DNA of 64,000 nucleotides from an uncultured Chloroflexia bacterium (lineage in GTDB: Bacteria; Chloroflexota; Dehalococcoidia; DSTF01; JALHUB01). Location: contig OY969814.1 of the NCBI GenBank assembly GCA_963703345.1, positions 1,024,001 to 1,088,000 of the forward strand, written 5' to 3'. The position numbers and the translations under genes are program-made. Position 1 is the stretch's first letter. Every line of letters starts with the position of its first letter. The notes beneath the pieces were generated by a model that saw nothing but the letters and a program-made list of their open reading frames with translations, ran no database searches and had not been told where the DNA came from. Positions 4,523 through 40,700 of the stretch are shown one piece after another.

Positions 4523-4570
4523 TGGAGCGGGAAACGGGACTCGAACCAGTGACCCTCTGCTTGGGAAGCA
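4523..4570 (-). tRNA. 3' half of tRNA-Gly(CCC), fragment
   Basis: Reverse complement TGCTTCCCAAGCAGAGGGTCACTGGTTCGAGTCCCGTTTCCCGCTCCA. Confidence 0.8.
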
Positions 4571-4619
4571 AAGGCTGCAGCCATCGCCGTCTTGAGACTC
4601 AAGCGGGAACCAGAAAGCC

Positions 4620-4852
4620 TTGACCGACCGCGACCGGCACGTCACAATAGCGCTGCCTGGCGTCGCGCCGTATCAGCTACGAGCTGAGCAGCGGAAGATT
4701 CAGGAGAGACACTCGGCCTAGCCAGATTCTGCACCTGAATCTTCTCCAAGGACGGCCGCCGGCAGATTCGGAATCGGCGCTTTCGGCTGGATTCCCGACC
4801 TGATTGATGGGGTTCAGGAGGTCGTGGGTTCGAATCCCACCGCCCCGACCAG
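4620..4852 (+). repeat. Copy 1 of ~230-bp direct repeat (promoter-like boxes, hairpins, tRNA-Pro 3' half)
   Basis: High identity to 10322-10554, read by eye. Confidence 0.9.
4807..4851 (+). tRNA. 3' half of tRNA-Pro(GGG), att-like fragment, copy 1
   Basis: ATGGGGTTCAGGAGGTCGTGGGTTCGAATCCCACCGCCCCGACCA; begins exactly at the anticodon loop. Confidence 0.85.
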
Positions 4853-4935: not shown

Positions 4936-6543
4936 CTAGACTTGCGAACCCTTTCGCTGATCCGGGTTGGGGCGGCGTCCTATGCGGCGCGCGATGTCGG
5001 CGGCGAAATTAGCGGCTGTTCCCACGACGCCGCGCTGGTGGGGGATGGGGCGCATCGCGTTCGACAGTTCCGGGTGCTTCTCGGCGTAAGCCCGCACCTC
5101 CTCCAGCGTCACGCCGTAGGCGTCGAGCACGCGCTGCAGCTCCCCACGGGCCTTGTCTTTCGCCTCCTGCAGCTTCATCTGCACCCGGCTCTTGACCAGC
5201 ACCTCGCCGTCTCCTGTCGTCTCGATGGGGATAAAGACCGTGTCGGCCAGGTCGCTCACCACCTTCGCCTGGACGCCATCGCTGATCGTACTGGGCATGC
5301 AGCCGAAAGGCTTGATGGAGATCATCATGTGAGCCTTGGCGTGTCGCACCATGTATATGTGCTTGGTGACCTCCAAGTGACCCTCGCCAGCGATGAGGCG
5401 CTTCTCGTAGTAGCCTTCGGAGTAGCGGTCGAGCATGTCCATCGCTGGGAAACCCTGCGGCTTCATATTCATGATGGCGCGGTAGAAGGTGTAGAGGATC
5501 TCCCCGAAGTGCTTGCCTACACGGAGTCCGAACCAGATGAGCCAGGGGTTGGCCGTGCCCATCCCCTGCGGGTCTGACTTGACGAAGAGGCGGTCCCGCA
5601 CCTTGAGCTCGTTGAGCCAGATCATGTACTCGAACCAGGCCCCGACCGTGTCCAGCATCACCTCGGCGCCCTCGTCCTCCAGCCAGTGCAGGAGACGGTG
5701 GTTCGACTCGTCCTCCGCGTGCTTGAGGAAGAACTCGCCGGTGACCTTCACCCGTGGCTTGACCCTCAGGTAATCGACCTCGATGCGGCCGAGCTTGACC
5801 CTGATAGCCGCCATCGTCTTCGAGATGGAGAGCCCTTCTCTTGCTGCCACACGCAACATCTCGCGGGCCTCCGCCAGCGCCCTGTCGGTTGCCCCGGGGA
5901 CGACCTCGTAGGGCCGGATCTGGCAGGCGAGGTCGCCCAGGAGGTCGGCGGCGATCGCCACCTTGGCGAGGCGCCAGAACACCTTGGGCGTCATCTGCAC
6001 CCCCGCCGACTCCTGATTGATGTCGAGGCCGTGGGCGATATCCAGCATCGCGATCCGGAAGTTGGGGAAGCCGGCCGCCTTGAGCGCCTTGCGCATGTCC
6101 GCCTCGTACATCCCCATCCGGCAGGGCCCGCAGTCGCTGGCCCAAAGGAGGGCAAAGCGCTCTTCGATCTCGCTGTCGGACAGCCCTTCCCGCCGTCGCT
6201 CGAATAGGAACTTGAGCAGGGTGCCGATCGTGTAGTAGGTGGGGTTGCACTGCCCGCGGTTACAGAACTCCTTGCCGATGGCGAGCGACTCCTGATCAGG
6301 GCTGGGAAGTCGCTGCGCTTTGTAGCCGAGCCCCTCCAGCAACCCCAGAAGCACCTCCTGGAGAGTGGCGGGAAGCGCGCAAAAGACGATGGTCGTCTCG
6401 GCCTTGCTTATCGGCGTGCAGGGTTCGGCGGGCCGCTTGAAATGGCGTACCTTCGGTCCCTCGACGCCCATCTCCTGGACGAGAGCGCGCCGGAAGGCCT
6501 CAACCTCCGCCTCGATCTCAGCCACTGACTCTATCGTGGACAC
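4936..6543 (-). CDS. 2-hydroxyacyl-CoA dehydratase-like / CoA-activase partner protein
   Basis: GQCNP, CGPCRMGMY, TGEFF, GEGHLEV and KPFGCMP motifs; overlaps the upstream activase gene. Confidence 0.8.
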   Translation of the reverse strand: MSTIESVAEIEAEVEAFRRALVQEMGVEGPKVRHFKRPAEPCTPISKAETTIVFCALPATLQEVLLGLLEGLGYKAQRLPSPDQESLAIGKEFCNRGQCNPTYYTIGTLLKFLFERRREGLSDSEIEERFALLWASDCGPCRMGMYEADMRKALKAAGFPNFRIAMLDIAHGLDINQESAGVQMTPKVFWRLAKVAIAADLLGDLACQIRPYEVVPGATDRALAEAREMLRVAAREGLSISKTMAAIRVKLGRIEVDYLRVKPRVKVTGEFFLKHAEDESNHRLLHWLEDEGAEVMLDTVGAWFEYMIWLNELKVRDRLFVKSDPQGMGTANPWLIWFGLRVGKHFGEILYTFYRAIMNMKPQGFPAMDMLDRYSEGYYEKRLIAGEGHLEVTKHIYMVRHAKAHMMISIKPFGCMPSTISDGVQAKVVSDLADTVFIPIETTGDGEVLVKSRVQMKLQEAKDKARGELQRVLDAYGVTLEEVRAYAEKHPELSNAMRPIPHQRGVVGTAANFAADIARRIGRRPNPDQRKGSQV

Positions 6544-9500
6544 GTCCCCCTCCTACCAGAAGTATCTCTTCCTGCAGACGCTTGCGATAGCTCGCCACCC
6601 GCCGCTCGATCTCCTGCTCTGTCTCACGGCGACGTTGCATATCCTCCAGCCGACGGCGGAGGAAATAGTCGATCGTCTCCACCCGCAGCTTGATGGAGCC
6701 GACCGGCCGGTTCTCGTCGAGGTCATGGAAGGCGAAGTAAGGCGTACCGGCCGCCTCGAGTATCCCTTCGATCACGTGGTAGATAGGGGAGTCGAGGCCG
6801 CACTTGAAGGAGGAGAAATCGATACCGGCCAGGTTGGGATGGCGAGCGACGAACTTCGCCGCCCAGACCTTGCGGCTGGTGTTCTCGCTGAAGGTATGTT
6901 TCCAGACATCGTGGATGTCCCGGGGGTCGCCGATCTCCCCCCAGCGCACCTCCTCGCCGAAGAGCCGGTCGAGGATATCATCGTCCATGGGCAGCGAGTC
7001 GATGGTGAAGACGGGGTATCCCAGCCGCTGGATCAGCTCCGGTATGTCGTGATTCACGCCCGGGTCGTTGTGGTAGGGGCGACCAAGCAGTACTATCCCG
7101 AGACGGCCCTCGTCCTCGAGCCGGTCGAGGACCTCCCGCGCCCGTCTCCTCAGGCTGCCGCGGAACGCTGCCAGCGCTCGGTAGCCCTCCCGCATCGCCG
7201 CCGCATTCTCCTCCGGGCTCACGCCGAGGATCGGGCGGACGAAGGTCAACATCTGCTGCTCGAAAAGGTTGGGCTCGGCCATGTGGAGCACGGGGGCGTA
7301 GAAGCAAGCTCCTTTCTCGGCGAAGGCGTCTTTCTCCGTGGTGAAGGCAGCCTTTACCACCTCCGGTATCCCCTGCACCGTGGGACAACTCCAGCCTGCC
7401 TGGCACTCATAGATGTCACTGGGCACGTTCATCATCTCCGGGAAGAACACAATGTCCGGCTGCTTCTTGGTGAGGAGGTTGTGAACGTGGGAGACAGCGA
7501 TCTTCGCCGGGTAACACGGGTCGATGGAGCCGCGCCGCGAGCCCTCGCGGAACATCTGGTCGTCCGTGTAGTCGGACCAGAGGATGTTGCGATGCAGCAC
7601 GCCTAGGCTCTCCAGATACGCGGTGAAGAACGGGGCATAGGAGTACATGGTGAGCAGCCGTGGGATGCCGATGCGCACCGTCGCCCGCCGCTCCCGCAGC
7701 CGCGCCACCGTCCCGCTGCCGTCCCAAACCGACAGGAAGCGCCGGCCGCTGCCGTTGGTGGCAGCGACGCTCTGCGGCGAGTAGCTGTGGAACGCCTCGC
7801 GGGCGGCGATCTCGATGAAGTTGGGGTTCGCCTTCTTCACCGCATTCTCGCGGGTGTTGAAGACCCTCACCGCGTCGATGCTCTCCGCCATCCCTCGCTC
7901 GCAGGTGGCGGAGATGAAGCGGGTCGTGTGTTCGGGCGAGGTCCTGATGTCGACGAAAGTGCGGAGGCACTTGTTCTTGCAGAACGAGCAGCGGGTCGAT
8001 TCGTCGCGGGTGGTGGTGAAGGTGAGCGCCTCCACCCGGTCGAACCCGATGAACGAGCTCTCCCCGCCGTCGCTCACGCGGATCGCCTCGCTGGCAGCGC
8101 CGAGGGCGCCGCTCTCACCGGCGTGCGGATGGACGTGGATCTTCGCGTCCGGCACGCGAGCCTTGATGAAGTCGTACTGCGCCTTGACCACGGCGAGGTT
8201 GTAGTGCGTCCCTCCCTGCAGGAGGAAGGTCTTGCCGAAGCGGGCCAGGTTCGTCTCCTGGACGACGTAGAGCCAGACGTTCTTGGGCAGGGTGAGAGCA
8301 AGGCCGGCCATGATCTCGGACGGCTGCCAGCCGAGCTGCTGGAAGTGCGAGATGTCCTGCTCCAGGAAGACGGCGCAACCGTAGTGAAACGCCGGCGCCC
8401 GCTCGGCGCTGAGGGCGACATCGGCCCACTGATTGAGGTCGTAGCCGAAGCGGGCGGTCGTGCTCTGGAGGAAATAGCCGTTGCCGGCCGAGCACTGCGT
8501 GTTGAGCTTGAAATCCTTGACGGCGCCCGCCTTCATGATGATGACCTTGATGTCCTGCCCCCCAACGTCGGCGATGACGTCCACGTCGGGGTAGTAGCGG
8601 AGGGCGGACCGGGCGTGGGCGACTGTCTCCGGGATCGCCAGGTCGGCGCCGAGCGCCTCCTTCAGTAGGTCCTTGGCGTAGCCCGTCGTGGCCATGCCGA
8701 GGATGCGCAGGCGCGCGCCCTGCCCCTCCACCTGGCGGCGCAGCTCGCCCAGTATCTCCTTGGCATCCTGGAGCGGGTTACCTTTGCAGAGCTGGTAGGC
8801 CTTCGCCAGCAGATTGCCTCCAACGTCCGTGAGGACGGCCTTCGTCGAGGTTGAACCGCCGTCCAGCCCCATGTATGCTTCCACAACCTGGCCGGGCGAG
8901 AAGGCGAGAGGGGTGAACGGTTTAGTGCCGTAAAGACGGCGGAACTCCTCGAGGTCTTCGCCGGGGGCGAGAGGACCCCGCTGGCCGGTGTGCTGCTTCG
9001 CCTTCCGCCGACCGAGGTCGATGTACTCCTCCAGCGCCGCCGTCCCGGCGTAAGTGCCGGCGAGTCCCTCCTCCTGCTGGCCGTAGAGAGCCGTCCCCAA
9101 GGCGGCATAGTACAGGGAGTGCTCCGGCACAACGATTAGCTCCTCGGCGGTGGAGCCGGCGGGCAGCGCCAGCCCCCGTTCCTCCCAGAGGCGCGGCACA
9201 TGTCGCCGCCATGCCTCCTGCAGACAGGGGAAGAAGGTGTTGGGGCCGCCCAGGAGGAGCACCTTGGGGCGCAGAACGTTGCCGCGGGTGAGCACGCTGA
9301 GGTTCTGCTGGACAATCGCCTCAAACAGGGAGACCATCAGATCCTCGGGGGGGACGCCCTGCTTCTGAAGGCTGTTCATATCGGTCTCCGCGAAGACGCC
9401 GCACTTGCCGGCGACGGGGTACACCTTCGCGCTGGCATACCGCATTTCCCGGAGCTGCGCCGGGCTCAGGTGCAGCTTCGCCGCGATGCGGTCGATGACA

Positions 9501-10000
9501 GCGCCCGTGCCGCCGGCGCACTTATCGTTCATGTTGGCGAGCTTCCGCTTGCGGCCCGTCTTCGGGTCCTCCCGCCAGATGATGATCTTGGCGTCCTGCC
9601 CTCCCAACTCGATGACTGAGCCCACGTCCGGCTGCAGTGCCTCCGCGGCCAGGGAGACGGCGTTGACCTCCTGCACGAACCGCGCCCCAATGTGAGGGGC
9701 GAGCGTCGCGCCGCCGCTTCCGGTGACGAAGATGCGGAACTGCTCGACGGGCAAGAGGAAGCGCTCTTCTATCTCCTTGAGGACCTCGAGGACCTTCTCC
9801 GGCTGGCACGTCTCATGGAGGCGGTAGTCGGCGCAGAGGATCTCCTTGCTGTCGGGCGCGACGACCACGTACTTGACGGCTGTCGAGCCAACGTCAAGCC
9901 CGATGATGAGCTCGCAGTGAGACGAGCCGTCGCCGTCCTGATGCGGTGTCAAGACCGAGGACGACAAAGCATGTGTGGTACCGTCACCCTCAACCTCCAA
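6518..10000 (-). CDS. CoA-substrate-specific enzyme activase (two BadF/BadG/BcrA/BcrD ATPase domains + DUF2229-like)
   Basis: GLDVGST and GLDGGST, GGQDAK/GGQDIK, CAGGTG/CSAGNG, DPCYPAK and GRPYH motifs. Start codon uncertain. Confidence 0.9.
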   Translation of the reverse strand: MEVEGDGTTHALSSSVLTPHQDGDGSSHCELIIGLDVGSTAVKYVVVAPDSKEILCADYRLHETCQPEKVLEVLKEIEERFLLPVEQFRIFVTGSGGATLAPHIGARFVQEVNAVSLAAEALQPDVGSVIELGGQDAKIIIWREDPKTGRKRKLANMNDKCAGGTGAVIDRIAAKLHLSPAQLREMRYASAKVYPVAGKCGVFAETDMNSLQKQGVPPEDLMVSLFEAIVQQNLSVLTRGNVLRPKVLLLGGPNTFFPCLQEAWRRHVPRLWEERGLALPAGSTAEELIVVPEHSLYYAALGTALYGQQEEGLAGTYAGTAALEEYIDLGRRKAKQHTGQRGPLAPGEDLEEFRRLYGTKPFTPLAFSPGQVVEAYMGLDGGSTSTKAVLTDVGGNLLAKAYQLCKGNPLQDAKEILGELRRQVEGQGARLRILGMATTGYAKDLLKEALGADLAIPETVAHARSALRYYPDVDVIADVGGQDIKVIIMKAGAVKDFKLNTQCSAGNGYFLQSTTARFGYDLNQWADVALSAERAPAFHYGCAVFLEQDISHFQQLGWQPSEIMAGLALTLPKNVWLYVVQETNLARFGKTFLLQGGTHYNLAVVKAQYDFIKARVPDAKIHVHPHAGESGALGAASEAIRVSDGGESSFIGFDRVEALTFTTTRDESTRCSFCKNKCLRTFVDIRTSPEHTTRFISATCERGMAESIDAVRVFNTRENAVKKANPNFIEIAAREAFHSYSPQSVAATNGSGRRFLSVWDGSGTVARLRERRATVRIGIPRLLTMYSYAPFFTAYLESLGVLHRNILWSDYTDDQMFREGSRRGSIDPCYPAKIAVSHVHNLLTKKQPDIVFFPEMMNVPSDIYECQAGWSCPTVQGIPEVVKAAFTTEKDAFAEKGACFYAPVLHMAEPNLFEQQMLTFVRPILGVSPEENAAAMREGYRALAAFRGSLRRRAREVLDRLEDEGRLGIVLLGRPYHNDPGVNHDIPELIQRLGYPVFTIDSLPMDDDILDRLFGEEVRWGEIGDPRDIHDVWKHTFSENTSRKVWAAKFVARHPNLAGIDFSSFKCGLDSPIYHVIEGILEAAGTPYFAFHDLDENRPVGSIKLRVETIDYFLRRRLEDMQRRRETEQEIERRVASYRKRLQEEILLVGGGRVHDRVSG

Positions 10001-10238: not shown

Positions 10239-10257
10239 GCCTCTGTATGTCAACGGC

Positions 10258-10294
10258 GGAGCGGGAAACGGGACTCGAACCCGCGACCCTCTGC
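10258..10294 (-). tRNA. 3' fragment of tRNA-Gly, copy 2
   Basis: GGAGCGGGAAACGGGACTCGAACCCGCGACCCTCTGC on the plus strand; matches the other Gly fragments. Confidence 0.75.
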
Positions 10295-10321
10295 CCGGAA
10301 TCAGCTGCCGCACGCATCTTC

Positions 10322-10554
10322 TTGACTGGCAGCAGCCAGCACGCCACAATAGCGCTGCCTGGCGCCGCGCCGTATCAGCTACGAGCTGAGCAGCGGAAGA
10401 TTCAGGAGAAACACTCGGCCTGGTCAGATTCTCCGCCTGAATCTTCTCCAATGGCGGCCGCTGGCAGATTCGGGATCGGCGCTTTCGGCGGGATTCCCGC
10501 CCTCAATGATGGGGTTCAGGAGGTCGTGGGTTCGAATCCCACCGCCCCGACCAG
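10322..10554 (+). repeat. Copy 2 of ~230-bp direct repeat
   Basis: High identity to 4620-4852. Confidence 0.9.
10509..10553 (+). tRNA. 3' half of tRNA-Pro(GGG), copy 2
   Basis: Identical 45-mer to 4807-4851. Confidence 0.85.
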
Positions 10555-10690
10555 AATGAAATCAGAGGGTCGCTTTCGAAGCTGGAGAAAAGGCAGCGCG
10601 GCTCTTTTTAGGTGGACGCACCAACGCCTAACGAGTGGGTTCAGGAGGTCGGTCTGGCAAAGGCGACCTCCTGAATGGTATCGGACCAGA

Positions 10691-10715
10691 TCACATTACG
10701 TCACACCTGCTCACA
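10691..10715 (+). repeat. Helically phased TCACA direct repeats (10-bp period)
   Basis: TCACA at 10691, 10701 and 10711; homologous array at 16982-17016. Confidence 0.65.
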
Positions 10716-10998
10716 GCTTGTCTCGCGCCTGAACACCAGAGAAGCGCGATAAGGTGTCAGGCGATAGTAAGAGTTGCTACTTGCCCACCCTCATCCGCCC
10801 CTGCAGTTGACCTCGGTTGTCTCTCTGGCCTCGGTGGGTCGCTTGTGTGGTGGCCCTCTTCTTGTCGCAGTCCTCCAACGAGGACTAGCCCATTTCCACC
10901 TCAGGGGGCAAACCCGGCGCCTCCCCCACCGGGGTGACACGAACCGCTTTACGTCTCAAGCGGCCGAGAGATAGGCTGGCGATTGCTTATCAAGAGAG

Positions 10999-12663
10999 AT
11001 GATGGACACCTCAGGCACACAGTCGCAGTGCGCCGCCCGGTACTACCTTGTGAGCGAACAGAGAACGAGCCTCAGAAACCACAGAGGCCTCCTGCGCCTT
11101 CGAGGGCGAGGCCGCCTGCTGTCGTTGCTCGAGATGCCGGCCATCCTCACCCGACTGAACGTCGCGCCCGATGGACGCTTCGTTCCCGAGATGCAGGATT
11201 GGGAGTCTTTCTGGGCACCGGCGCATGAGCTAGCCAACCCGCAGATCGATCACGTCCTGGAGAGGCTTCACGCTTCCTGGCAGGACTACATCCGATCTCG
11301 CTTCGACCGATCGCTGCAGCGGGAGTACTGCCTCTGGTACTTCTCCCTCCTGGATCTCATCTTGGCGACGCCCGTTGGCCGGCGGGATTCCCTCCCCTGG
11401 CAGCGGGCGCTACGGGCCGTCGTGGGCTTCGAGTGTTTCGGCATAAGGGCACCAGCCCTCGGCGCGGAGGCTCTGGCTGCGGGCACGATGACCCTTCGCA
11501 ACCCCTGTTACGTCCTTGCCAAGCTCAGATGGCCGGACGCCTTGGACGATACCCAGTTCCTTCCCCTCATCGGCCCACCACACGGCAAGCCTGCCAGCCT
11601 CTACTACCACTACCGGCAGTACCGGCTCTCAAAGGATTCACCTATGTCGCTTCTTCTGTATGTGGCGGCCGCTCCCACGCATCGCTTGACGAGCTTCAGA
11701 CTCGTTGAGTCGTTGGCGCGGGGCGTCAGTTCAGGCGGCGATCCTCGCACTGGGCAGCGGGCGCGACGCCTGTGGGAGAAGGTTCTCAGGCCGATCGTCC
11801 AAACTGCCCGCACCGATGCAACGACAGCAATGCCCGTTGAGTTAGTTGACGTCGGCGCGGGCAGTGGCGCCCTGACCGCTGCTCTCTGCCATAGGCTCCT
11901 GGCCTGGGGCGTGGCAAACGGACTCTTGCCTCGGCTTCGCGTATGGTTTGTGGACTTGTGCCTCTCCGACCCGGCGCGGTTCTTTCGGGCCGCTGGCCTG
12001 AGAAACCGCATCGACAGTCTGACGTTCCTGGGCGACGACTATCGCCGTTGGCTGGCGCGGCCGGGGCCGCTGCCCGAATCCTCAGGTATTCGAGTGGCGC
12101 TAATCTCGAAGCTCTTCAACAACTTGAGCCGTTTCTCAGTTTGCCGTTGTCGCACAGATGTGCTATCCTCCTCGTCAACTGGCACACCGTTCATCGACGG
12201 GCGAAGGCACCTGCCGTCTTTCTGTTTGGCGCCCGACGGTGCGGGTCCGGAGGCTCTCGTGATCTCCACTTCACGCCTTGGCTTGGCTGAGGGCCGGACC
12301 TTTGCCCAAGCCTCACTCTCAGACTACTACCGTGCGCTCCAGCTGGCGCTCGCGGACGGCAAAGAGGAGGAGGTATCGGAGGACGGAGCCTGGCTGCCAC
12401 TGAGGGCCCTCGATCCTGGATGCCTCATCGCCGCCGACGGGACGAGTGTACTCGCGCGGCTCTTGGAGCACTGCGACTACCTCATCGTTGAGGACGCCGA
12501 TCTGAGGCCGAAGGACATCGTCAAACACCTGCGAGCGTTCTCGCTGGATGGGCTGGCCGCCCTTGACATGACCAAGACGCTGGGCCTCATCGGGAACCAC
12601 GCATACCTACTCTCAAGCAAGGGTGAAAAGAAGACTTCACTACCGGGGGAGCGAATATGGTAG
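10999..12663 (+). CDS. Hypothetical protein with a class I SAM-dependent methyltransferase-like C-terminal region
   Basis: LVDVGAGSG motif I followed by WFVD (acidic end of strand 2); N-terminal half not recognised. Confidence 0.65.
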   Translation: MMDTSGTQSQCAARYYLVSEQRTSLRNHRGLLRLRGRGRLLSLLEMPAILTRLNVAPDGRFVPEMQDWESFWAPAHELANPQIDHVLERLHASWQDYIRSRFDRSLQREYCLWYFSLLDLILATPVGRRDSLPWQRALRAVVGFECFGIRAPALGAEALAAGTMTLRNPCYVLAKLRWPDALDDTQFLPLIGPPHGKPASLYYHYRQYRLSKDSPMSLLLYVAAAPTHRLTSFRLVESLARGVSSGGDPRTGQRARRLWEKVLRPIVQTARTDATTAMPVELVDVGAGSGALTAALCHRLLAWGVANGLLPRLRVWFVDLCLSDPARFFRAAGLRNRIDSLTFLGDDYRRWLARPGPLPESSGIRVALISKLFNNLSRFSVCRCRTDVLSSSSTGTPFIDGRRHLPSFCLAPDGAGPEALVISTSRLGLAEGRTFAQASLSDYYRALQLALADGKEEEVSEDGAWLPLRALDPGCLIAADGTSVLARLLEHCDYLIVEDADLRPKDIVKHLRAFSLDGLAALDMTKTLGLIGNHAYLLSSKGEKKTSLPGERIW

Positions 12664-13628
12664 ACGTCATCAGGGCGGGCCGCAGGTCGGCGGTCCTGAC
12701 GCCGTCCGACCTCCCTTGCCTCTCGACGATCCCAACCATCAACCTCACCGCCGGCTGTCTCCACGGCTGCGCCTACTGCTACATCCGCGGCTACAGCACG
12801 TTCCCCGGCGAGGGTCGGGTGGTCCTGTACGAGAACACGCTGGAGAAGCTCCAGCATGAACTTGTGCGACGGCGGGCGAAACCGCGTGCGGTCTACTTCA
12901 GCCCCTCCAGCGACCCCTTCCAGCCAGCACCGGAGGTTCTCGAGCTCGCCCGGGCGGTGCTTGCGTTTCTGCTCAGGGAGGGGATCGGCGTTGCCTTCTT
13001 GACCAAGGGCCGCATTCCCGACAATATAATGCGGCTTCTCGTCGAGCACGCCGAGTTGGTGCGGGCCCAGGTCGGCATCACCACCTTGGACGACGCTGTC
13101 TCGCGGGCGTTCGAGCCCAACTCCGCCAGCCCCGAACAACGCCTGGCGCAGATGCAGGCGCTCATCGCCGCCAACGTGCCGACGGAGGCGCGGCTCGACC
13201 CTGTCCTGCCGGGTCTGACGGACGACCCGCGGTCGATGGATCGCCTCTTCGCCGCCCTGACCCGGATCGGCGTCAGGCGGGCGGCGGCGAGCGTGCTCTT
13301 CCTCAGACCGGCCATCGTGCAATCTCTTCGATGGAACGTGCCCGACAAGGAGATGCTGGCGCGGCTCCTCAGCGCCTACCAGGGGAGCGAGCGTATAGGG
13401 CTCCGCGGCACCGGATCACACGTCCAGACGCTGCCGTCCGCGGTCAGAGGCGAACTCTTCGCGCGGATGCGGGAGATAGCGTTGGCGCACAGCATCGAGT
13501 TGAGTATCTGCGCCTGCAAGAACCCTGACCTGGCGAGCGGCTCCTGCAATATCGCCGGCAGATGGCCCAAGCAGGAGGCCTGGTCCGTTCAGCCTGTCCT
13601 TGCAGGTGAGTTTGCCAGCAGGCAGTGA
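12657..13628 (+). CDS. Radical SAM protein, spore-photoproduct-lyase-like family
   Basis: GCLHGCAYCY (CxxxCxxC), SSDPFQP, LTKG, FEP and PVLPGLTD motifs; start overlaps the upstream stop. Confidence 0.9.
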   Translation: MVDVIRAGRRSAVLTPSDLPCLSTIPTINLTAGCLHGCAYCYIRGYSTFPGEGRVVLYENTLEKLQHELVRRRAKPRAVYFSPSSDPFQPAPEVLELARAVLAFLLREGIGVAFLTKGRIPDNIMRLLVEHAELVRAQVGITTLDDAVSRAFEPNSASPEQRLAQMQALIAANVPTEARLDPVLPGLTDDPRSMDRLFAALTRIGVRRAAASVLFLRPAIVQSLRWNVPDKEMLARLLSAYQGSERIGLRGTGSHVQTLPSAVRGELFARMREIALAHSIELSICACKNPDLASGSCNIAGRWPKQEAWSVQPVLAGEFASRQ

Positions 13629-13640
13629 AAAGGTGAACGC

Positions 13641-14274
13641 ATGCTTCAGGATATCCCTATTGATAGCCTTGTCGCCCATCCTGACAACAGCAACCACATG
13701 AGCACCGAGATGCTCAAGAAGCTGCGTCGGCATATCGAACGGACGGGAAGATACGAGCCGCTGACTGTCCGCCCGCACCCGAGCGCGGAGGACAAGTATG
13801 AGGTTCTCAACGGTCACAACCGGCTGCGCGTCCTTCGGGCTATCGGACGAAACTCGGCGTGCTGTGTCGTGTGGGATGTCGACGACTCCCAGGCCAGGCT
13901 CTATCTCGCCACACTCAACCGCCTCGCCGGCAGCGATACTCCGGAACGGCGGGCGGCTCTTCTGGAGAACCTTCTAGGCACCTTCGATATGACGGAGCTT
14001 TTGGGGGTTGCTCCCTGATAGTCAACGCCAAATCGAGGAGCTCCAGCGGCTGTCACGCCTGGACACAGAAGAACTCATCTCTTCCGGCATGACTGACAGA
14101 GACGAATCTGGCGTGCCCGTTATCCTAGACTTCGTTCTGGAGGAGTCCGAGGCCAAGGAAGTGAACCTCGCCCTGGACATGGTCCGAGCCCCTGAAGGAC
14201 AGAGCATCTCCAGCGGCCAGGCGCTTGTCCGGCTCGCACGCTTCTATCTCGCTGGCTGCAAGCCAAGCTGCTGA
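13641..14274 (+). pseudogene. ParB/Srx N-terminal-domain protein split by a 1-nt insertion in the G run at 14003-14007
   Basis: HPDNSN, PLTVR, YEVLNGHNRLR and LNRLAG motifs. Dropping one G gives ...TELLGLLPDSQRQIEEL..., joining ORFs 13641-14018 and 14008-14274. Could be a sequencing error. Confidence 0.75.
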
Positions 14275-14317
14275 GAGTAGGCCGCCGCTCCATGCTCCCA
14301 ATCTGAGGCAGGCTTCT

Positions 14318-14716
14318 ATGGGGAACGACCACTTTTCAGAGCTGCTGCGGCACTTCAAGCGGAGTGAGGCTCCCGAGGCCGTCCTCCTCGTAGCCGACGA
14401 CCCAACGCTTACCAAGATCGTCGTGGCATGGAACAATCTTGACCTACGGCCGGGCAAGAAGCCTAGGCGATCCCCCGGAGAGTCGGAGCATGACCAGTGG
14501 GACTGGCTCTGGGCCAACGTCAGCTATTCCCTCGAGGACTTGGCCGAGAGAAGCGGTCTCACTGTCGCTCTCATCGAGCGGAAGCTTAAGCCGCTCATCG
14601 GGAACCGCATTCTGTATCCCGACGGTTCTGTGAACTCGTTCGTGCAGCGGTATCTGCGGGAACGGGTACTCAAGCTGTTCGATGCGAAACCGAGGAAGCC
14701 GGCCAAAACCGGTTGA
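14318..14716 (+). CDS. Hypothetical protein, possible winged-HTH C-terminus
   Basis: Same strand as the operon. YSLEDLAERSGLTVALIERKLKPL is HTH-like. Start taken at ATG 14318. Confidence 0.65.
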   Translation: MGNDHFSELLRHFKRSEAPEAVLLVADDPTLTKIVVAWNNLDLRPGKKPRRSPGESEHDQWDWLWANVSYSLEDLAERSGLTVALIERKLKPLIGNRILYPDGSVNSFVQRYLRERVLKLFDAKPRKPAKTG

Positions 14717-14968
14717 CACTCTTCACAACGGCCGCAGGCGCCATTCCGCCAGCGCAGTACCTACGGCTGTTTGCTCGATCCGCTGTGTCTGACCTACAAG
14801 CACATGCGGCCGGAGGACTCAGCCCATCTCATTAGTCTACGCCACCCTCGCCACAATCCGTGGCTGGCCGACTAACCGCCCCGCCGCGGATTTGCGGGTC
14901 ACACCAGGAATACAGGCGGCGGGGGCAGCTACGGACAGCGTTTTGCCTCCACACCTCTGGCGCCCCAC

Positions 14969-15002
14969 TTGCATGTCATCGGAATGTCAAATATAGTTTG
15001 AC
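14969..15002 (+). promoter_or_regulatory. Sigma70-like promoter with palindromic operator for abiEi
   Basis: TTGCAT-17bp-TATAGT. GTCAAA-N5-TTTGAC spans the -10. The ATG is 7 nt after the -10, so the mRNA is probably leaderless. Confidence 0.7.
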
Positions 15003-15004
15003 CT

Positions 15005-15643
15005 ATGAGTGACATCAATGCCGCATCGCGCACCCGCCGACCTGCTTCCCAACCGGATCGCGCCCGACTCTTCGATATCGCTTCAGAGCAGGGTGGCTAC
15101 TTCACGGCTGAGCAAGCCCGGGTTTCTGGTTTTAGCCGATCACTTGTCTCGCATCACGTGAAGAGCGGCCGGTTCATCAGAGTACGTCGGGGACTGTATC
15201 GCTTTCGTGAGTATCCGGCGTCGCCGCGTGAGCACGTGCTCGCCGCGTGGCTCGCAGTAGGGAAGGACGTAGCCGTCGTCTCGCACGAAAGCGCACTTGA
15301 CCTGCTCGACCTCAGCGACGTGATACCGGATGCGGTACACCTTACTGTTCCTCGGTCGCGGCGCAACGTCCTCACGCTCCCCGGTGTGAAGGTCCACACC
15401 ACTGCTCGATCACCAAGGTCGGAAGACGTTGTCGTGCGCGATGGTATGGCCATCACCTCGGCCACGCGCAGCATCCTCGACGCAGCCGAGATGGGGACAG
15501 CACCGGAGCAGCTTGAGATGGCTGTCATTCAGGCGATTGAGCGCGGCCTGGCCACCCCGCGACAACTGCGGCAGGATGCCGTAGCGCGCGGACGGCGAGT
15601 GGCAACACTGATCGAGGAAGCGCTTCGCAGGTTTCGGCAATGA
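15005..15643 (+). CDS. abiEi: Type IV toxin-antitoxin AbiEi-family antitoxin
   Basis: QGGYFT, RVRRGLYR, VVSHESAL and VHLTVP motifs; ATGA overlap with the next gene. Confidence 0.88.
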   Translation: MSDINAASRTRRPASQPDRARLFDIASEQGGYFTAEQARVSGFSRSLVSHHVKSGRFIRVRRGLYRFREYPASPREHVLAAWLAVGKDVAVVSHESALDLLDLSDVIPDAVHLTVPRSRRNVLTLPGVKVHTTARSPRSEDVVVRDGMAITSATRSILDAAEMGTAPEQLEMAVIQAIERGLATPRQLRQDAVARGRRVATLIEEALRRFRQ

Positions 15644-16524
15644 AATACGCCACTCCCGGCGCATTCCGTAGGGCTCTCGAACAGTGACTCCTGACGATGG
15701 CCAGGGAGACAGATGTCCCACTGATGCGGCTGCGCAAGCTCGTTGTCTTCGACCGCTTGATGGCGCGCCTGGTGGTCGTGGCTCCGAACCGCTGGGTCGT
15801 CAAGGGTGCGGCGGCCCTCCTCTTTCGCCTGGGAGCCAGGTCTCGCACCACGAAAGACCTCGATCTCGGGCGCCAAGATAACGAGGAGGCGGCAACGGCC
15901 GACTTTCTTGCAGCACAGTCGCTCGATCTTGGTGACCACTTCACGTTTGCCATCGAGCGCACGAAGAAGCTGGACGCGATGCTGGAAGGTGTCGCGGTGC
16001 GGTACCACGTTGTCGCAGAGTTCGGCGGGCGCGTGTTTGAGGACGTGACGGTCGACGTCGGCTTCGGGGATCCCGTCGTCGCTGATCCAGAGCTCGTGCG
16101 CGGACCAGATCTACGGAGCTTCGCGGATATCCCTCCCGCCGAAGTGCCGGCGTTGCCTCTGGAACAGCATGTCGCCGAGAAGATTCATGCCTACACCCGG
16201 AGCTACGTCGGCGGCCGCCCGAGCACCCGTGTCAAGGACCTTCTCGACCTCGCCATGATGGGGTCGCTCTTCAGCTTCCAGGCTGGCCGCCTGCGGCGAG
16301 CCCTTGAGGCCACGTTTGCTGCTCGTGATACCCATCTGCTGCCATCTGTGCTTCCTGCGCCACCGCCCCAGTGGGGTGTTGCGTACCGAAGGACGGCTAC
16401 CGAGGTCGGTTTGGACTCTGACATGTCGATGGGGTACGAGCAGGCGGCGGCGTTTCTCAATCCGATCTTGGCGGGGACAACTCCATCTGATGCCCGATGG
16501 GATCCCGTGCAGCGTACCTGGTAG
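15640..16524 (+). pseudogene. abiEii: AbiEii-family nucleotidyltransferase toxin with a premature TGA at codon 16 (possible restart at 15697)
   Basis: MKYATPGAFRRALEQ*LL; KGAAAL (usually KGG), RTTKDLDL, AEKIHA and STRVKDLLDL motifs. Confidence 0.85.
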
Positions 16525-16804: not shown

Positions 16805-16849
16805 ATGGGGTTCAGGAGGTCGTGGGTTCGAATCCCACCGCCCCGACCA
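16805..16849 (+). tRNA. 3' half of tRNA-Pro(GGG), copy 3
   Basis: Identical 45-mer; shares downstream GAATGAAATCAG with copy 2. Confidence 0.85.
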
Positions 16850-16863
16850 GAATGAAATCAGGA

Positions 16864-16981: not shown

Positions 16982-17016
16982 TCACACCGCGTCACACCTG
17001 CTCACAACCCGTCACA
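16982..17016 (+). repeat. Helically phased TCACA direct repeats (4 copies, 10-bp period)
   Basis: TCACA at 16982, 16992, 17002 and 17012; shares CGTCACACCTGCTCACA with the 10.7-kb array. Confidence 0.7.
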
Positions 17017-17040
17017 GGGCGCCCCGGCTCAGGCGGAGAG

Positions 17041-17091
17041 TTCGGTTTCCTAAACCGAAGGGCGCAGGTTCGAGTCCTGCCGGGAGTATCA
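17041..17091 (+). tRNA. tRNA-Arg(CCT) fragment/pseudogene
   Basis: Anticodon arm TCGGT-TTCCTAA-ACCGA, T-arm GCAGG-TTCGAGT-CCTGC, degenerate end ATCA; weak D-arm-like traces upstream. Confidence 0.75.
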
Positions 17092-17094
17092 CAC

Positions 17095-17220
17095 CCGAAT
17101 GGATTGTCGGCACACTACAGCGCCGGATCGTCGCTCTACCGGTTCTCGGTGGCCTTCACCACGAGTACGATTGGGTGGCCGCTTGAGGTACGCAGATGGA
17201 TCCAATATTGTTCCCTCACA
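17095..17220 (+). mobile_element. Internally deleted IS remnant (transposase C-terminus + terminal IR)
   Basis: Encodes IVGTLQRRIVALPVLGGLHHEYDWVAA, similar to the 30535-31566 C-terminus; ends ...ATTGTTCCCTCACA. Confidence 0.8.
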
Positions 17221-17326
17221 GGGTGCGGCATGAGCCGCCCGCAGCTCGGATCGGGGTCCTTCGACCCCACAACGGTCTGCGCAGGCCTTAGCGTGGATCT
17301 GAGATAAGCATGCGAACGCCCTGGAA

Positions 17327-18914: not shown

Positions 18915-21900
18915 TCACCCTGGTCCCCCTATCGACTGCAGCAGCCCTTCGATTTGCCGCCGCACATCGGGGATTTCGACGAGCTTGCGAGCCTCGTCGA
19001 TCTCCGCCCGCGCGTCATCAAGGTGACCCTGCGCCTGGGACAGGAGCGCTCGGTGATAGTACAGCTCAGCGCCCGCCTCCGGAGGAAGCGTCTCAAGGCC
19101 GCGCAGCGCCTCATCGAGGTCCGCCGCCGCACGTTGATAATCGCCGAGCACAAAGTACGCATACCCGCGTCGGTCATAACCCGGCGTGTACGTTGGGTCG
19201 AGTGCGAGCGCCGCATTGATGTCCTCCAACCCAAGTTGGACCTGGCCAGAATCAACGTAGGCCTGCCCTCGGCTGCTCAGCAGATAAGCAGTCGGCTGTC
19301 CCTCCTGTAGCAGCGTGGTGGCGTCTTCTATCGCGGTTTCGTACTGTCCTGAGTAGCGGGCGACATACAGGCGGGTGTAGAGCTCGCTCTGATCTAGCTC
19401 TACAGCGCGGTTCGCATCGGCCATCGCTTCCGGCTTGAGGTCAAGGTACAGGCGCGCGATGGCTCGATTGCTGTAGGCGCCGGCCTTGTCAGAGTCGAGG
19501 GCGATAGCCTGCGACAGGTCCGACTCCGCCTCCTGATAACGACCCATGTCTCTGTAAGCAGTGCCCCGGTTGAGCCACACGGTTGCGTTGCCTGGCTGAA
19601 TCGCTAGTTGCTTTGTCGTATATTCAACCGCGGCCCCGTAGTCACCGCGACTGAACGCTATGTCCGTGAGTTCGTCGAGGGAGACCATATGGTCCGGGTT
19701 CAGCTCAAGAACACGCTGGCAGTCGGGCTCAGCCCGCTCGTAGTCTTTGACAGCAGCAAGAGCCAGACAGCGGACGAAATAGGCGTCCCAGGCTTCGGAA
19801 CCAGCAGGGAGAGGCTGAGTTGCTGCGTCGAAATCCGCGGCAGCGGAAGTCAGATCCCCCTGCTTTGCTTCCGCCCATGCTCGAATGGCATGACCGGCTG
19901 GATGGTCAGGCCGCAGCTCTACGAGGCGATCGCCGTCAGCCTTGGCAGCTTCTAGATCGCCCTCTTGTATCAGCACGCGGCCTCGCGCCAGGTAGCTGGC
20001 AGGGAACCCGTCATCAAGCTCTATCGCCCGGTCAAGATCGACGCGTGCATGTTCGAAATCGCCTTCGGCCAGGTAGCGCTCGCCCCGCAAATAGTAGGCC
20101 ATGCTCACGTCTGGGAATATCTTGACCAGTCGATTGAAAGCTCCAATGTTCCCCGGCGTGTCGACCTCGTTCGCGGAGACTATGACCGCCTGCCTCATTC
20201 CAAACCAGACCACAAGCCCGAAGACTATCGCCAAGATCAGCGGCACCTCGAATCCAAAGAGGCCGAGGTGGCGGACGGCTATCTTCGCGCGCAGCCGACG
20301 GCTGGCCAGCGACGTGGCGACCACGCCGGCAGCCATCGCCGCTGACGCAGCAACCAGGACACCGGCGAACAGTCCCGGCGATAGACCCACTTGCGCGCCA
20401 GCATCTGGCAATACGCGAAACTGGTAACACGTCAGCAACGCCCAGGCTAGTGCCCCGCCGCCGGCTACCAGCAACCCCAGTTGCCGCACAGAAGCCCAGC
20501 GCCGTCCCTCTTCGATCTGGCGCGGGCCCAAAGGCGTCCGGCGAACGCTCGCCCAGCCTCGTGCCTGCGACCGCAGCAGCGCTGTCCAGGCAACGGCCAC
20601 GAGGAGAGTGCCGATGACGACAGCGATTACCAGTGAGTGGTCACCAAGCAACAGCCGCAGCGTTGCCGCGCCAACGTACATCGACGATAGCCGATCGAGC
20701 GCACCGAACCGCAGCAGTCCGACGAGCGCCCCGAACCCTAGGAGAACCGACGCCAGGCCCAACAACCAGCCGCTCAACGCCACACGGATGAGAAGTGGCA
20801 GGGAGACCTTCCGACGCATCAGGATCGGCACTGCCAGGTGCGCAAAAGCGATCCCCGCGAGAAGCAAGGGCAGCCCTCCCAGGGCGACGGCCAGCAGCAC
20901 CGACGAGAGATTGAAATCGATTACCTCAAGGGGCAGGCCGAGCGTAAGCAAATTGGGTTGCGGGCGGCGGGTTGCGAAAAGCAGGAACTCGGGGAGAACC
21001 AGCAGCAGCGCAAGCGATGCCTGGACCGCCGCCGCCGCCGCGCGGGTCACTCCCGCGGGCCGCCTGTGGCCGCTATACACTCCTGCTAGAGAAGCCATAT
21101 TCAAGAGGCGGCTGGCAGTCCGGCGATAATTCCTCGCCTCCGAGGGCGCTTGCAGTCTGTCGGCGCGCTCTCCGGCAGCCAGGTAGTATGCTGCGGCCCG
21201 CTCCGTGTGCCCGGCTTCGCGATAGTGGAAAGCCATCTGTTCCGGCTCTACCTCTATTCCTTCCTCTCGCACCAGCTCCAGGGATTCCGCTGCCCTCAGG
21301 TGCAGTTCCGCACGCTTGCGCCGCAGCACCGCCTCATAGAGCGCCTGCTGCACTACAGAGTGCCGGAATCGGTAGCCACGGTGATCGGTGCCGGGCAGCT
21401 CGTCGAGCAACCCGACTTCGCACAGTTGGGCCAGAGACTCGTGCAGCCGTTCGCTGACTGTCGCGACTATCTTCAACGGTTCCTCGTAGAACATCTGCCC
21501 AAAGATACTCGCGTCCAGGAGTAGCTGGCGGCTCGTTTCGTCCAGCTCGTCAACGCGGGCGACCACCGCCGTTTCAAGGGACTCGGGAAGGCGCGCTTCT
21601 TCGGGTGCCGCAATGGCGGCGGCCGCAAGCAGCTCCAAGTAGAGGGGATTTCCACCCGCCTGCGAGAGAATATCCGTTGCTCTTTCCACGGATACCCCGG
21701 GAGCGGCGGCGAGCACTAATCCGCGTGCCTCCTCCTCGGCAAGAGGCTCCAGCGTGATGGAGTCCTCCGTGGGCAAACGGTGGAGCTGGCGACCCTTGGG
21801 CTGCCGGAGCAGCACACTCAGCACCGGCAACGCAGCCAGGCGTGGCAAGAGCTTCTGGACCACAGCGACGGTGGCGCCGTCGGCGCGGTGCATGTCATCG

Positions 21901-22907
21901 AGAACGAAGGCAACGGGGCCGTTTCTCGTCAGCGCTTCGATTACTTCGGCCAGCCCATCGACCAGCCAACCGGGCTCAACCTCAGGGACCTCCGCCAGCT
22001 CGTGGGCGCGCGCCAGCGCCTCCAGCCGCTCGCGGAAACTCGGCGCCAGGTTGTCCCTCAGGGAAGGAAGCAGCTGCAACAACGGTCCAAACGTCCGAGG
22101 TGGCGTATCCGCGCGAGCGTAGAGGATCTGCTCGGGAGCTGTCCCGGCCATCGCGAAGTGATGCGCCAGTAGTCTCGTCTTACCGACGCCGGCCTCTCCA
22201 ACGACTTGCAGCACGCGCGCGGGCCCCGCTTTGGTCGCGGACCATAACTCCCGTATACGCCGCAAGTACTGCTCGCGACCCACGAAGGGCGTCTCGCTCG
22301 GCGCGGGGACCAGCCCGATGTGGGCCGGGGCCAGCGCTTCCACGCCGTAACAGATGACCGGCTCTGCGCGGCCTTTGACGGTGAGCTCGCGTCCATTGCC
22401 CCACTGGAACCGACGACGCGCCAGACGCCGGGTCATGTCGCCCACCATCACTGCGCCCGGCTGGGCCGCCTTCTCCAAACGCGCGGCGACGTTCACGGCA
22501 TCGCCCGTGACCGTGTACCCACCCGGGCCGACCGCGCCGGTCACCACAAGCCCGGTGTTGATCCCGATCCTAATGCTCAATCCATGGCCGAGTCGTTCGG
22601 TGAGCTGCGGCGTCAGATCGTCGAGCGCATGGTGCATCGCCAGCGCTGCCGCCACCGCCTTGCCGGCGTCGTCCTCCTGCGCCTTTGGAGCGCCGAAGAG
22701 CGCCATTATCTCGTCGCCGACGACCTTGTTAACGTAGCCACCGAACCGTTTGATCTCGGCGGAAAGGCGGTCGAAGCAGATACTCAACGTGGATTGAACC
22801 AGCTCGGGGTCGCGCGTCTCGGAGACGGACGTGTAGCCGACCAGGTCAGCGAAGAGGATCGTTACGAGCCTGCGCTCTTGCGGATGGTCTGCACGCTCTT
22901 GGCTCAT
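18915..22907 (-). CDS. Class III adenylate/guanylate cyclase + STAND-type ATPase + multi-TM + TPR protein
   Basis: LFADLVGYT, VGDEIMALFGAP, IGINTG and GDAVNVAARL cyclase motifs; FVGRE, GEAGVGKT, LDDMHRAD and GGNPLYL; about 7 TM segments; C-terminal TPRs. Start uncertain. Confidence 0.88.
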   Translation of the reverse strand: MSQERADHPQERRLVTILFADLVGYTSVSETRDPELVQSTLSICFDRLSAEIKRFGGYVNKVVGDEIMALFGAPKAQEDDAGKAVAAALAMHHALDDLTPQLTERLGHGLSIRIGINTGLVVTGAVGPGGYTVTGDAVNVAARLEKAAQPGAVMVGDMTRRLARRRFQWGNGRELTVKGRAEPVICYGVEALAPAHIGLVPAPSETPFVGREQYLRRIRELWSATKAGPARVLQVVGEAGVGKTRLLAHHFAMAGTAPEQILYARADTPPRTFGPLLQLLPSLRDNLAPSFRERLEALARAHELAEVPEVEPGWLVDGLAEVIEALTRNGPVAFVLDDMHRADGATVAVVQKLLPRLAALPVLSVLLRQPKGRQLHRLPTEDSITLEPLAEEEARGLVLAAAPGVSVERATDILSQAGGNPLYLELLAAAAIAAPEEARLPESLETAVVARVDELDETSRQLLLDASIFGQMFYEEPLKIVATVSERLHESLAQLCEVGLLDELPGTDHRGYRFRHSVVQQALYEAVLRRKRAELHLRAAESLELVREEGIEVEPEQMAFHYREAGHTERAAAYYLAAGERADRLQAPSEARNYRRTASRLLNMASLAGVYSGHRRPAGVTRAAAAAVQASLALLLVLPEFLLFATRRPQPNLLTLGLPLEVIDFNLSSVLLAVALGGLPLLLAGIAFAHLAVPILMRRKVSLPLLIRVALSGWLLGLASVLLGFGALVGLLRFGALDRLSSMYVGAATLRLLLGDHSLVIAVVIGTLLVAVAWTALLRSQARGWASVRRTPLGPRQIEEGRRWASVRQLGLLVAGGGALAWALLTCYQFRVLPDAGAQVGLSPGLFAGVLVAASAAMAAGVVATSLASRRLRAKIAVRHLGLFGFEVPLILAIVFGLVVWFGMRQAVIVSANEVDTPGNIGAFNRLVKIFPDVSMAYYLRGERYLAEGDFEHARVDLDRAIELDDGFPASYLARGRVLIQEGDLEAAKADGDRLVELRPDHPAGHAIRAWAEAKQGDLTSAAADFDAATQPLPAGSEAWDAYFVRCLALAAVKDYERAEPDCQRVLELNPDHMVSLDELTDIAFSRGDYGAAVEYTTKQLAIQPGNATVWLNRGTAYRDMGRYQEAESDLSQAIALDSDKAGAYSNRAIARLYLDLKPEAMADANRAVELDQSELYTRLYVARYSGQYETAIEDATTLLQEGQPTAYLLSSRGQAYVDSGQVQLGLEDINAALALDPTYTPGYDRRGYAYFVLGDYQRAAADLDEALRGLETLPPEAGAELYYHRALLSQAQGHLDDARAEIDEARKLVEIPDVRRQIEGLLQSIGGPG

Positions 22908-23003
22908 CTGGGCTGTCCGGAGTGAACCCCAAGCCGGCATGGGACGGGCGAAGAATCGAGAGTAACTATACCACAGCCTTGCCAATTTGTAACACGAATC
23001 CTC

Positions 23004-23031: not shown

Positions 23032-23112
23032 TCTGTCCGCATCCCCCCGTCCTCGAAGGTGGTGGCTCACCTAGGCACGTTAGGGCCCCTTGTGGCGGGC
23101 AAAGGGGATCCC

Positions 23113-38659: not shown

Positions 38660-38705
38660 TGGAGCGGGAAACGGGACTCGAACCCGCGACCCTCTGTTTG
38701 GGAAG
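38660..38705 (-). tRNA. 3' half of tRNA-Gly(CCC), copy 3
   Basis: TGGAGCGGGAAACGGGACTCGAACCCGCGACCCTCTGTTTGGGAAG on the plus strand, with a hairpin at 38607-38632. Confidence 0.8.
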
Positions 38706-40391: not shown

Positions 40392-40578
40392 GTCAGAAAC
40401 CTCCCTGTCGTTACCCTCCATCACGTCGACCCGGGGTGATAGGCGTAGCGCCAACCGATACACAAACGCGCTCAGCCACCCTCGCCTAGGGTATCACACT
40501 AACGAGTGAAGGCTGCAGATGGCGCCGGAACTCAGCGGCCCCACGGAATGACGACCGGTGTCTCCGCCTGGTCCTGCC

Positions 40579-40700
40579 CGTGGGGCAACAATATTGGATC
40601 CGTATCTGCGGAGGTCAGCGCCGGCCCACTCGTACTCGTGGCGGAGACCACCGAGAACCGGTGGGCCGATCTTCCCTCAGGCCTTGTCGCCCGGGCTCCA
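40579..40700 (-). mobile_element. IS end remnant of the same family
   Basis: IR-like CGTGGGGCAACAATATTGGATCCGTATCT; minus strand encodes PVLGGLRHEYEWA. Confidence 0.75.

Follow-up and report, generated by a model that had tools for sequence, protein, structure and literature searches.

What would a bacterium do with four genes packed tightly between two copies of a transfer RNA (tRNA) fragment, when one encodes an orphan methyltransferase-like protein and the next a relative of spore photoproduct lyase (SPL)? The genes lie in a 64,000-nucleotide (nt) stretch, here called the window, of contig OY969814.1 (assembly GCA_963703345.1, positions 1,024,001 to 1,088,000) from an uncultured Chloroflexota bacterium. 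Gene coordinates below are those of the whole 64-kb window, in which the open reading frames (ORFs) were re-derived and screened with Pfam, NCBIfam and PADLOC 2023 profiles. The answer favoured here, at a little better than even odds, is that the genes form a conserved, repeat-bounded mobile cassette switched by DNA damage through a LexA-type operator, in which B, a radical S-adenosylmethionine (SAM) enzyme, would act on a damaged or modified DNA base, by removal or conversion, and the part of A in the pathway would be to methylate a base. The four genes, and the promoter predicted inside the first of them, are these:

10999 to 12663, plus strand: gene A, 554 amino acids (aa), of an orphan family of about 530 aa, with an unmatched N-terminal domain followed by a class I SAM-dependent methyltransferase fold
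12657 to 13628, plus strand: gene B, an SPL-clan radical SAM enzyme, PA0069/Rv2578c-like (PF04055, 1.5e-14)
13641 to 14274, plus strand (13641 to 14018 and, in another frame, 14008 to 14274): gene C, with a ParB/Srx N-terminal domain (PF02195), frameshifted by one extra base near 13999
14318 to 14716, plus strand: gene D, a conserved orphan of 132 aa with a basic tail, possibly winged-helix
12141 to 12169, plus strand: predicted internal sigma-70 promoter in A (−35 TTGCCG, 17-nt spacer, TG, −10 TATCCT), with a LexA-type box at 12152 to 12163

The ORF coordinates bear out an original prediction, made from the letters of this DNA, that the four co-directional genes are tightly packed and the first two overlap, as B starts (12657) inside A, which ends at 12663. 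The codons for the conserved C-terminal GERIW of A (12645 to 12660) also provide the ribosome-binding site and the start codon region of B, which suggests translational coupling of the two; two loci with B only (L192 and L194) retain this piece of A. The neighbourhoods of relatives tell the same story of linkage. Among 107 A loci gathered by genome and metagenome scans, which include near-duplicates so that counts are not independent events, B lies downstream of A in 90 of the 98 loci with room, C in 48 of 63 and D in 36 of 51, and A to D thus travel as a widespread cassette. Any SPL-clan enzyme adjoins A in 96 of the 97 loci that could be scored (those with the C-terminus of A and 300 nt of room), and these partners belong to at least three subfamilies that are only 25–33% identical. 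B, for its part, is often found without A, in several B-only loci that often have no nearby tRNA motif, and its query matches 12 of 401 genomes of the class. The spread is patchy throughout: full or near full-length A is present in 2 of 401 Chloroflexota genomes (the other 20 matches being weak generic methyltransferases) and in 5 of the 351 genomes searched from the phylum to which one Planctomycete-labelled genome belongs, and D is present in 13 of 401 genomes of the class. The non-Chloroflexota labels of three loci (L003, L010 and L017) may be binning errors, L003 being nearly identical to the metagenome locus L062. No relatives of A were found in the viral contigs, phage records or plasmids searched, and no RNA run was listed among those found.

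The evidence for a damage switch comes from a palindrome, scored as G(A/T/C)AC-N4-GT(T/A/G)C just after an extended −10 box. The LexA motif of Dehalococcoides served as a lead, which was then tested against lexA promoters: the same palindrome lies 29–58 nt upstream of the lexA match in six of six genomes, including this one, whose lexA gene is near genome position 184000. Of 63 distinct regions upstream of A, 24 contain the box; shuffles gave 0.85 on average and never more than 5. A search for it in front of A in the window had a negative outcome; there the internal box, 488 nt before B and between the −35 and the TG-extended −10 of the predicted promoter, is likely a LexA-type operator within the coding sequence of A and a predicted damage switch for B. 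Among 88 distinct homologous segments, 37 have this box at the same codons, several with a perfect TTGACA, and it is retained among A homologues down to about 48% protein identity; the pattern for the site, derived after the site had been seen, has a single match in the window and 0 in 100 shuffles. Both positions could be scored in 59 loci, with the internal box only in 22, the upstream box only in 21, both in 1 and neither in 15, and a quick tree of 61 A proteins divides the two positions between two clades, for which reason a Fisher test on the positions (p 1.9e-5) is not relied on. Six of eight B-without-A loci examined carry the box (L157, L165, L192, L194, L195 and L196; not L193 or L198), and in L192 only the internal-promoter piece of A is kept, in front of B. 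The gene lexA itself stands directly upstream of A in L152 and L154, from a Planctomycete-centred sample. The box-then-minus-10 layout occurs at seven sites in this genome, five of them with a TTGAC hexamer, and one precedes a Y-family polymerase gene. With an operator that matches the host lexA palindrome and overlaps a predicted promoter, the cassette has the mark of an SOS member and is therefore likely switched on by DNA damage, and the balance tips from constitutive modification or anti-phage defence to damage-induced action. SplB/COG1533 and PA0069 are reported among SOS genes (PMC8565304; bioRxiv 2022.03.14.484287).

That the cassette moves is indicated by its borders:

10509 to 10565, plus strand: left attachment (att)-like direct repeat, 46 nt of a tRNA-Pro(GGG) 3' half plus 11 nt
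16805 to 16861, plus strand: right att-like direct repeat, 57 nt, identical to the left copy

The block had been described as lying between tRNA-Pro halves; it is indeed flanked by att-like tRNA repeats, and what needs correcting is that both are 3' halves, in a 57-nt direct repeat with 46 nt of tRNA. All 46 of these match an intact tRNA-Pro at genome positions 1016632–1016677. That tRNA-Pro(GGG) gene, at genome position 1016600 and about 7.4 kb before the window, has a tyrosine integrase gene directly behind it, and with a third repeat copy at window position 4807 this makes the block the third unit of a tandem array. In three genomes of the same genus, the repeat query has 3, 4 and 9 matches, mostly of the same repeat. 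Two stretches of the window, 4619–4852 and 10321–10554, form a 234-nt repeat, 91% identical and ending in the att site, as right ends of two successive array units, and the cargo of the preceding unit (4936–10000) is a BadF/BcrAD ATPase–DUF2229 coenzyme A (CoA)-activase gene pair. A GTGACA word (10930–10945), some 12 nt ahead of the −35 region that precedes A, is conserved in most homologues of both clades, and similar TCACA-type repeats lie beside the att sites (10700–10720 and 16985–17015); these words may serve as arm sites of an integrase, or be a site at which C or D acts.

The flanks of relatives were surveyed for tRNAs and for direct repeats of at least 18 nt, with one tyrosine integrase as query. 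Repeats of 21–58 nt, most of them tRNA 3' halves, bound the cassette in 13 of the 38 loci with enough flank, giving units of 2.9–5.9 kb, and in 14 of 110 loci the cassette has an intact tRNA within 1 kb, ten tRNA species being represented in all. A homologue of the tested integrase is in none of the 13 bounded units, and no replication, transfer, nuclease/effector, transporter or metabolic gene is conserved in or near the cassette loci. The joint expected on excision between the two repeats was not seen in contigs of four runs, which cannot show absence. In keeping attL/attR repeats with no integrase or transfer genes inside, the unit agrees with the definition of the cis-mobilizable elements (CIMEs; PMC5704250), a class reported in Dehalococcoides ssrA arrays (PMC3146451), where att-bounded units likewise lack integration and transfer genes and stand in tandem at the 3' end of a conserved gene (PMC5704250 and PMC3146451). 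It differs from them in that this cargo recurs at ten tRNA species and not at one site, sometimes directly after an intact tRNA.

Protein B is the member of the cassette whose chemistry can best be approached through known enzymes. Its CxxxCxxC motif (C34, C38 and C41) and the flanking Y40 and Y42 are invariant in 60 of 60 aligned homologues, and so are four further cysteines, C21, C285, C287 and C297; an extra C-terminal cysteine cluster had been singled out in the original prediction. The best family scores of B are with the SOS SplB-like proteins (COG1533), namely NF033668 (PA0069; 3.5e-31, 108.5 against a cut-off of 360) and NF038135 (Rv2578c; 90 against 430). The LexA-type operator is a further likeness to that group, from which B departs in scoring far below both cut-offs, in sitting on a mobile cassette with an orphan methyltransferase-fold partner and, in one clade of A, in having its operator within the upstream gene. 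With the SPL profiles B is likewise below cut-off (TIGR04070, 22.5 against 400; PF20903, 16.2 against 27), and SPL chains are its only solved relatives in PDB. It shares with SplB (TIGR04070, PDB 4FHC series) the radical SAM fold and the tyrosines, Y40/Y42 matching Y97/Y99 that flank the motif in the Bacillus subtilis enzyme, in which C141 is the hydrogen donor (PMC3742179). The differences are P83 at the position of the hydrogen-donor cysteine, the four extra invariant cysteines, three partner genes and a host that is presumably non-sporulating. A radical SAM mobile pair (TIGR04470/TIGR04471) also consists of mobile SPL-clan genes; the match of B is weak (33.8 bits against 410) and the partner genes differ from those of the cassette. 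Downstream of B in one locus (L197:1-370), a short motif is repeated in translation, probably the edge of a CRISPR (clustered regularly interspaced short palindromic repeat) array.

Protein A probably starts at the GTG at 11050 (537 aa), judging by its homologues, of which a word search gave 169 (about 480–550 aa) and a profile search 400 clusters at 50% identity (E ≤ 0.001). The predicted structure (predicted local distance difference test score, pLDDT, 84.8) has a class I methyltransferase fold at residues 206–543, and comparison with solved class I methyltransferases gave VIA Z scores of 13.9–11, tied among small-molecule and protein methyltransferases. Motif I, D284-x-G-x-G-x-G (G286, G288 and G290), and the acidic motif II residue D319 are conserved in 84 diverse members. 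The N6/N4 DNA amino-methyltransferases carry a motif IV of the form (D/N/S)PP(Y/F). It is absent from both A consensus sequences, and none of the 84 members has an N6/N4 Pfam match. The A protein of the window has no Pfam match, PF02636 included; that family matches 9 of the 84 members weakly (best 3.1e-5) and is found in 15% of an Atlas cluster (score 0.92). The N-terminal half, which had been called unrecognised, remains so: it has no Pfam or solved-fold match, and folded alone (pLDDT 87.9) it gave no Foldseek match at E ≤ 0.001, its best match being helical bundles at VIA Z 7.8, by which a new fold is not thereby proven. Across the 84 members it conserves W68, W72, Y114, R167, Y205, R206, R229 and R254, an aromatic and arginine set that would suit nucleic-acid binding. 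A, B and C have dN/dS (nonsynonymous to synonymous substitution rate) values of 0.19–0.45 against three or four close homologues each and by this measure are under purifying selection. Prediction of an A–B complex scored 0.00 and was counted neither for nor against any reading.

The last two genes are smaller. Protein C, 210 aa, has after its ParB domain a short C-terminal beta-alpha-alpha region in the alignment that by eye appears ribbon-helix-helix-like. As the original prediction had supposed, its two frames are one broken gene: all 46 homologous loci that span the junction read ParB without a break in frame, so that a programmed frameshift was rejected, and a contig of run X1, otherwise identical over 372 nt, is without the extra base. 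D has 1582 homologues and no Pfam or significant PDB match, and its Atlas matches to helix-turn-helix (HTH) families, all below 0.85, are leads only. Behind D follow two more genes within the repeats:

15005 to 15643, plus strand: AbiEi antitoxin, a passenger (PF13338, PADLOC AbiEi)
15640 to 16524, plus strand: AbiEii nucleotidyltransferase toxin, a passenger (PF08843), with a premature TGA at codon 16 (15685)

All three runs that cover codon 16 of AbiEii have a sense codon there; on these comparisons the ParB extra base and the AbiEii stop are private to this assembly, as assembly errors or recent mutations. The AbiE pair had been placed next to the operon; it occurs in 1 of 107 A-related loci and was rejected as a conserved part of the cassette. 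AbiEi and AbiEii are also the only strong PADLOC matches on the operon, the weak others being the ParB domain to a methyltransferase model (2.2e-6) and methyltransferase matches, so that no described defence system beyond AbiE was recognised, as had been expected.

Sister cassettes help to place the chemistry. One kind joins a ParB–N6/N4 DNA methylase gene, a true SPL-family gene (PF20903, 4.2e-31) and D (L080:5381-8238, L161, L166, L162 and L164), with a LexA-type box in L080, L162 and L166, tRNA-Ala near L080 and tRNA-Ile near L162 and L164. A third D-ending cassette, L160:7461-9894, follows a tRNA-Arg and comprises a ParB-like gene (by eye), an MgsA C-terminal-like gene and D; it also has a LexA-type box and a weak TAGT glycosyltransferase match (6.8e-6, below cut-off). 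The cassettes with a DNA methylase, a true SPL gene and D point to DNA chemistry, as far as gene content can tell. Two more ParB–N6/N4 methylase genes lie in the genome of the window itself, at 1898555–1899751 and 2263225–2264403, the second adjoining a tyrosine integrase.

The favoured mechanism starts from the co-occurrence of the genes, their repeat-bounded insertion at many tRNA genes and the conservation of the operator. RecA-triggered cleavage of LexA would free the promoter, which in this genome is the one inside A and would then drive B, C and D, with A made from its own upstream promoter; in the other clade damage would induce the whole operon. By analogy to SPL, the 5'-deoxyadenosyl radical of B would take a hydrogen from the base lesion, and its four extra cysteines would bind a second metal centre that replaces the hydrogen-donor cysteine of SPL. 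In the least certain step, A would write a base mark or cap the product of B, which would account for A being almost never without an SPL-clan partner and B often being alone. This asymmetry, together with the place of A outside the SOS transcript predicted for this clade, is what one would expect of an enzyme that writes a mark and a partner that repairs after damage, but would also be expected if A acted downstream of B. The roles proposed for C and D are to bind DNA and to load or regulate the enzymes, and an integrase encoded elsewhere in the tRNA array would excise and insert the unit. A bolder version, possible though doubtful, would make A the founding family of a kind of DNA base “writer” with a new N-terminal fold, and the SOS-induced SPL-type enzyme either a repairer of lesions that the mark creates or the finisher of a radical hypermodification; one lineage would have uncoupled the two by means of a LexA promoter in the coding sequence of the writer, and the unit would move between tRNA sites in the manner of an integron cassette by means of host integrases.

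Several observations weigh against the damage-switched cassette. The closest folds of A are generic small-molecule and protein methyltransferases and not DNA methylases, and the hydrogen-donor position of SPL aligns with the proline of B (in a weak profile alignment, E 0.004). The 15 loci with neither box must be counted, and since the box positions follow clades they stand for few events, about one relocation kept over long divergence, and not for 43 independent ones. The palindrome is upstream of recA in only one of five genomes, all but one of the seven box-plus-minus-10 sites precede no recognisable SOS gene, and the internal promoter, with 8 of 12 consensus matches, was missing from the output of a stock promoter scan. 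The habitats of the matching runs, mostly sediments and marsh soil, are not ones in which the relevant lesion is obvious.

Other readings draw on the same data. An anti-phage or restriction-like system, in which A and B, once infection had triggered SOS, would put a modification on DNA or nucleotides or attack one, would suit the patchy spread (A in 2 of 401, D in 13 of 401), the hotspot insertion at tRNAs, the TIR, BrxL-like, PIN and AbiE genes seen as neighbours at single loci and the sister cassettes with a DNA methylase or TAGT-like glycosyltransferase. It is rather unlikely all the same, as the cassette has no conserved nuclease or effector and no PADLOC system match, and B also occurs by itself behind the same operator, frequently away from any tRNA motif. 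The units at ten tRNA species could also be read as an SOS-excised element in which A and B modify its own DNA to survive restriction in a new host, and a 210-aa ParB with a Mom homologue has been described in the integration modules of Dehalococcoides ssrA islands (PMC3146451). This helper role in mobility is improbable, given bounded units in which no homologue of the tested integrase was found, the lack of a conserved replication or transfer gene and the absence of C and D from at least a quarter of loci.

A further reading takes A for a MidA-like methyltransferase of proteins, or a maturase, whose target would be its iron-sulfur partner B or some other protein, so that only B would touch DNA. 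A does share with MidA/NDUFAF7/COG1565 (PF02636) the class I fold with an insertion after strand 4; the structural alignments with this group are among the longest and reach the C-terminus of A (5ztz, Z 13.5, 232 residues, root-mean-square deviation 8.3; 4g67, Z 12.7, 215 residues), and the PF02636 matches already mentioned agree. The odds of it are nonetheless small: the Z scores are tied with those of unrelated O- and N-methyltransferases, identity is 10–13%, A has an extra N-terminal domain of about 220 aa with no fold match, and B apparently works without A in many genomes, judged by the B-only loci. Where the MidA motif after strand 4 has an acidic residue, A has K or R in a comparison by eye. 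Finally, the ParB frameshift, the AbiEii stop and the small-molecule methyltransferases among the top folds of A might speak for a small-molecule pathway, or the debris of a decaying island, with no DNA role. This is highly improbable in view of the purifying selection on A, B and C, the conserved operator and the lack of any conserved transporter or metabolic gene nearby.

The surroundings of the cassette are rich in remnants. Further tRNA fragments (Gly-like and Arg), some on the opposite strand, lie at 4523–4568, 10257–10302, 38660–38705, 2456–2501 and 17019–17088, and 96 T-arm motifs were counted in the genome, for which 53 tRNAs are predicted. Remnant ends of one insertion sequence (IS) are found at 17122–17222, 30524–30599 and 40577–40669, with an integrase core domain at 30538–31566 and a related IS near the tRNA-Pro gene. 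Two large genes follow the cassette, a 1356-aa adenylate cyclase–AAA–membrane–TPR fusion (18915–22985) and a 1709-aa RCC1/NHL repeat surface protein (23059–28188).

The original prediction of an uncharacterised modification, repair or anti-phage system thus keeps its conserved cassette, the absence of a PADLOC match, the att-like repeats and the pointers to DNA chemistry; membership of AbiE found no support, and the LexA operator had been missed. No description of the A family, the four-gene unit or the intragenic operator was found in the literature, although few subscription papers were covered and an earlier bioinformatic mention is possible. The cassette is a real, undescribed form of SOS radical SAM module on a minimal mobile unit, and its known kin are the SOS SplB-like genes and the integrase-free att-bounded elements.

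SplB-like radical SAM genes are members of the SOS response in many bacteria, and to our knowledge only the spore enzyme among these proteins has a known substrate, the lesion 5-thyminyl-5,6-dihydrothymine, which it repairs; the literature searched assigned none to the non-spore enzymes. The operator inside A is a clear case of a promoter built into a coding sequence, and A itself stands for about 400 clusters of methyltransferase-fold proteins that belong to no classified family and carry an unmatched domain. For the SplB-like enzymes, the cassette offers a handle on the substrate question, in the form of a constant partner enzyme, a sister cassette that includes a true DNA methylase, a defined predicted inducible promoter and, at four genes, a size that can be expressed and assayed by nucleoside mass spectrometry.

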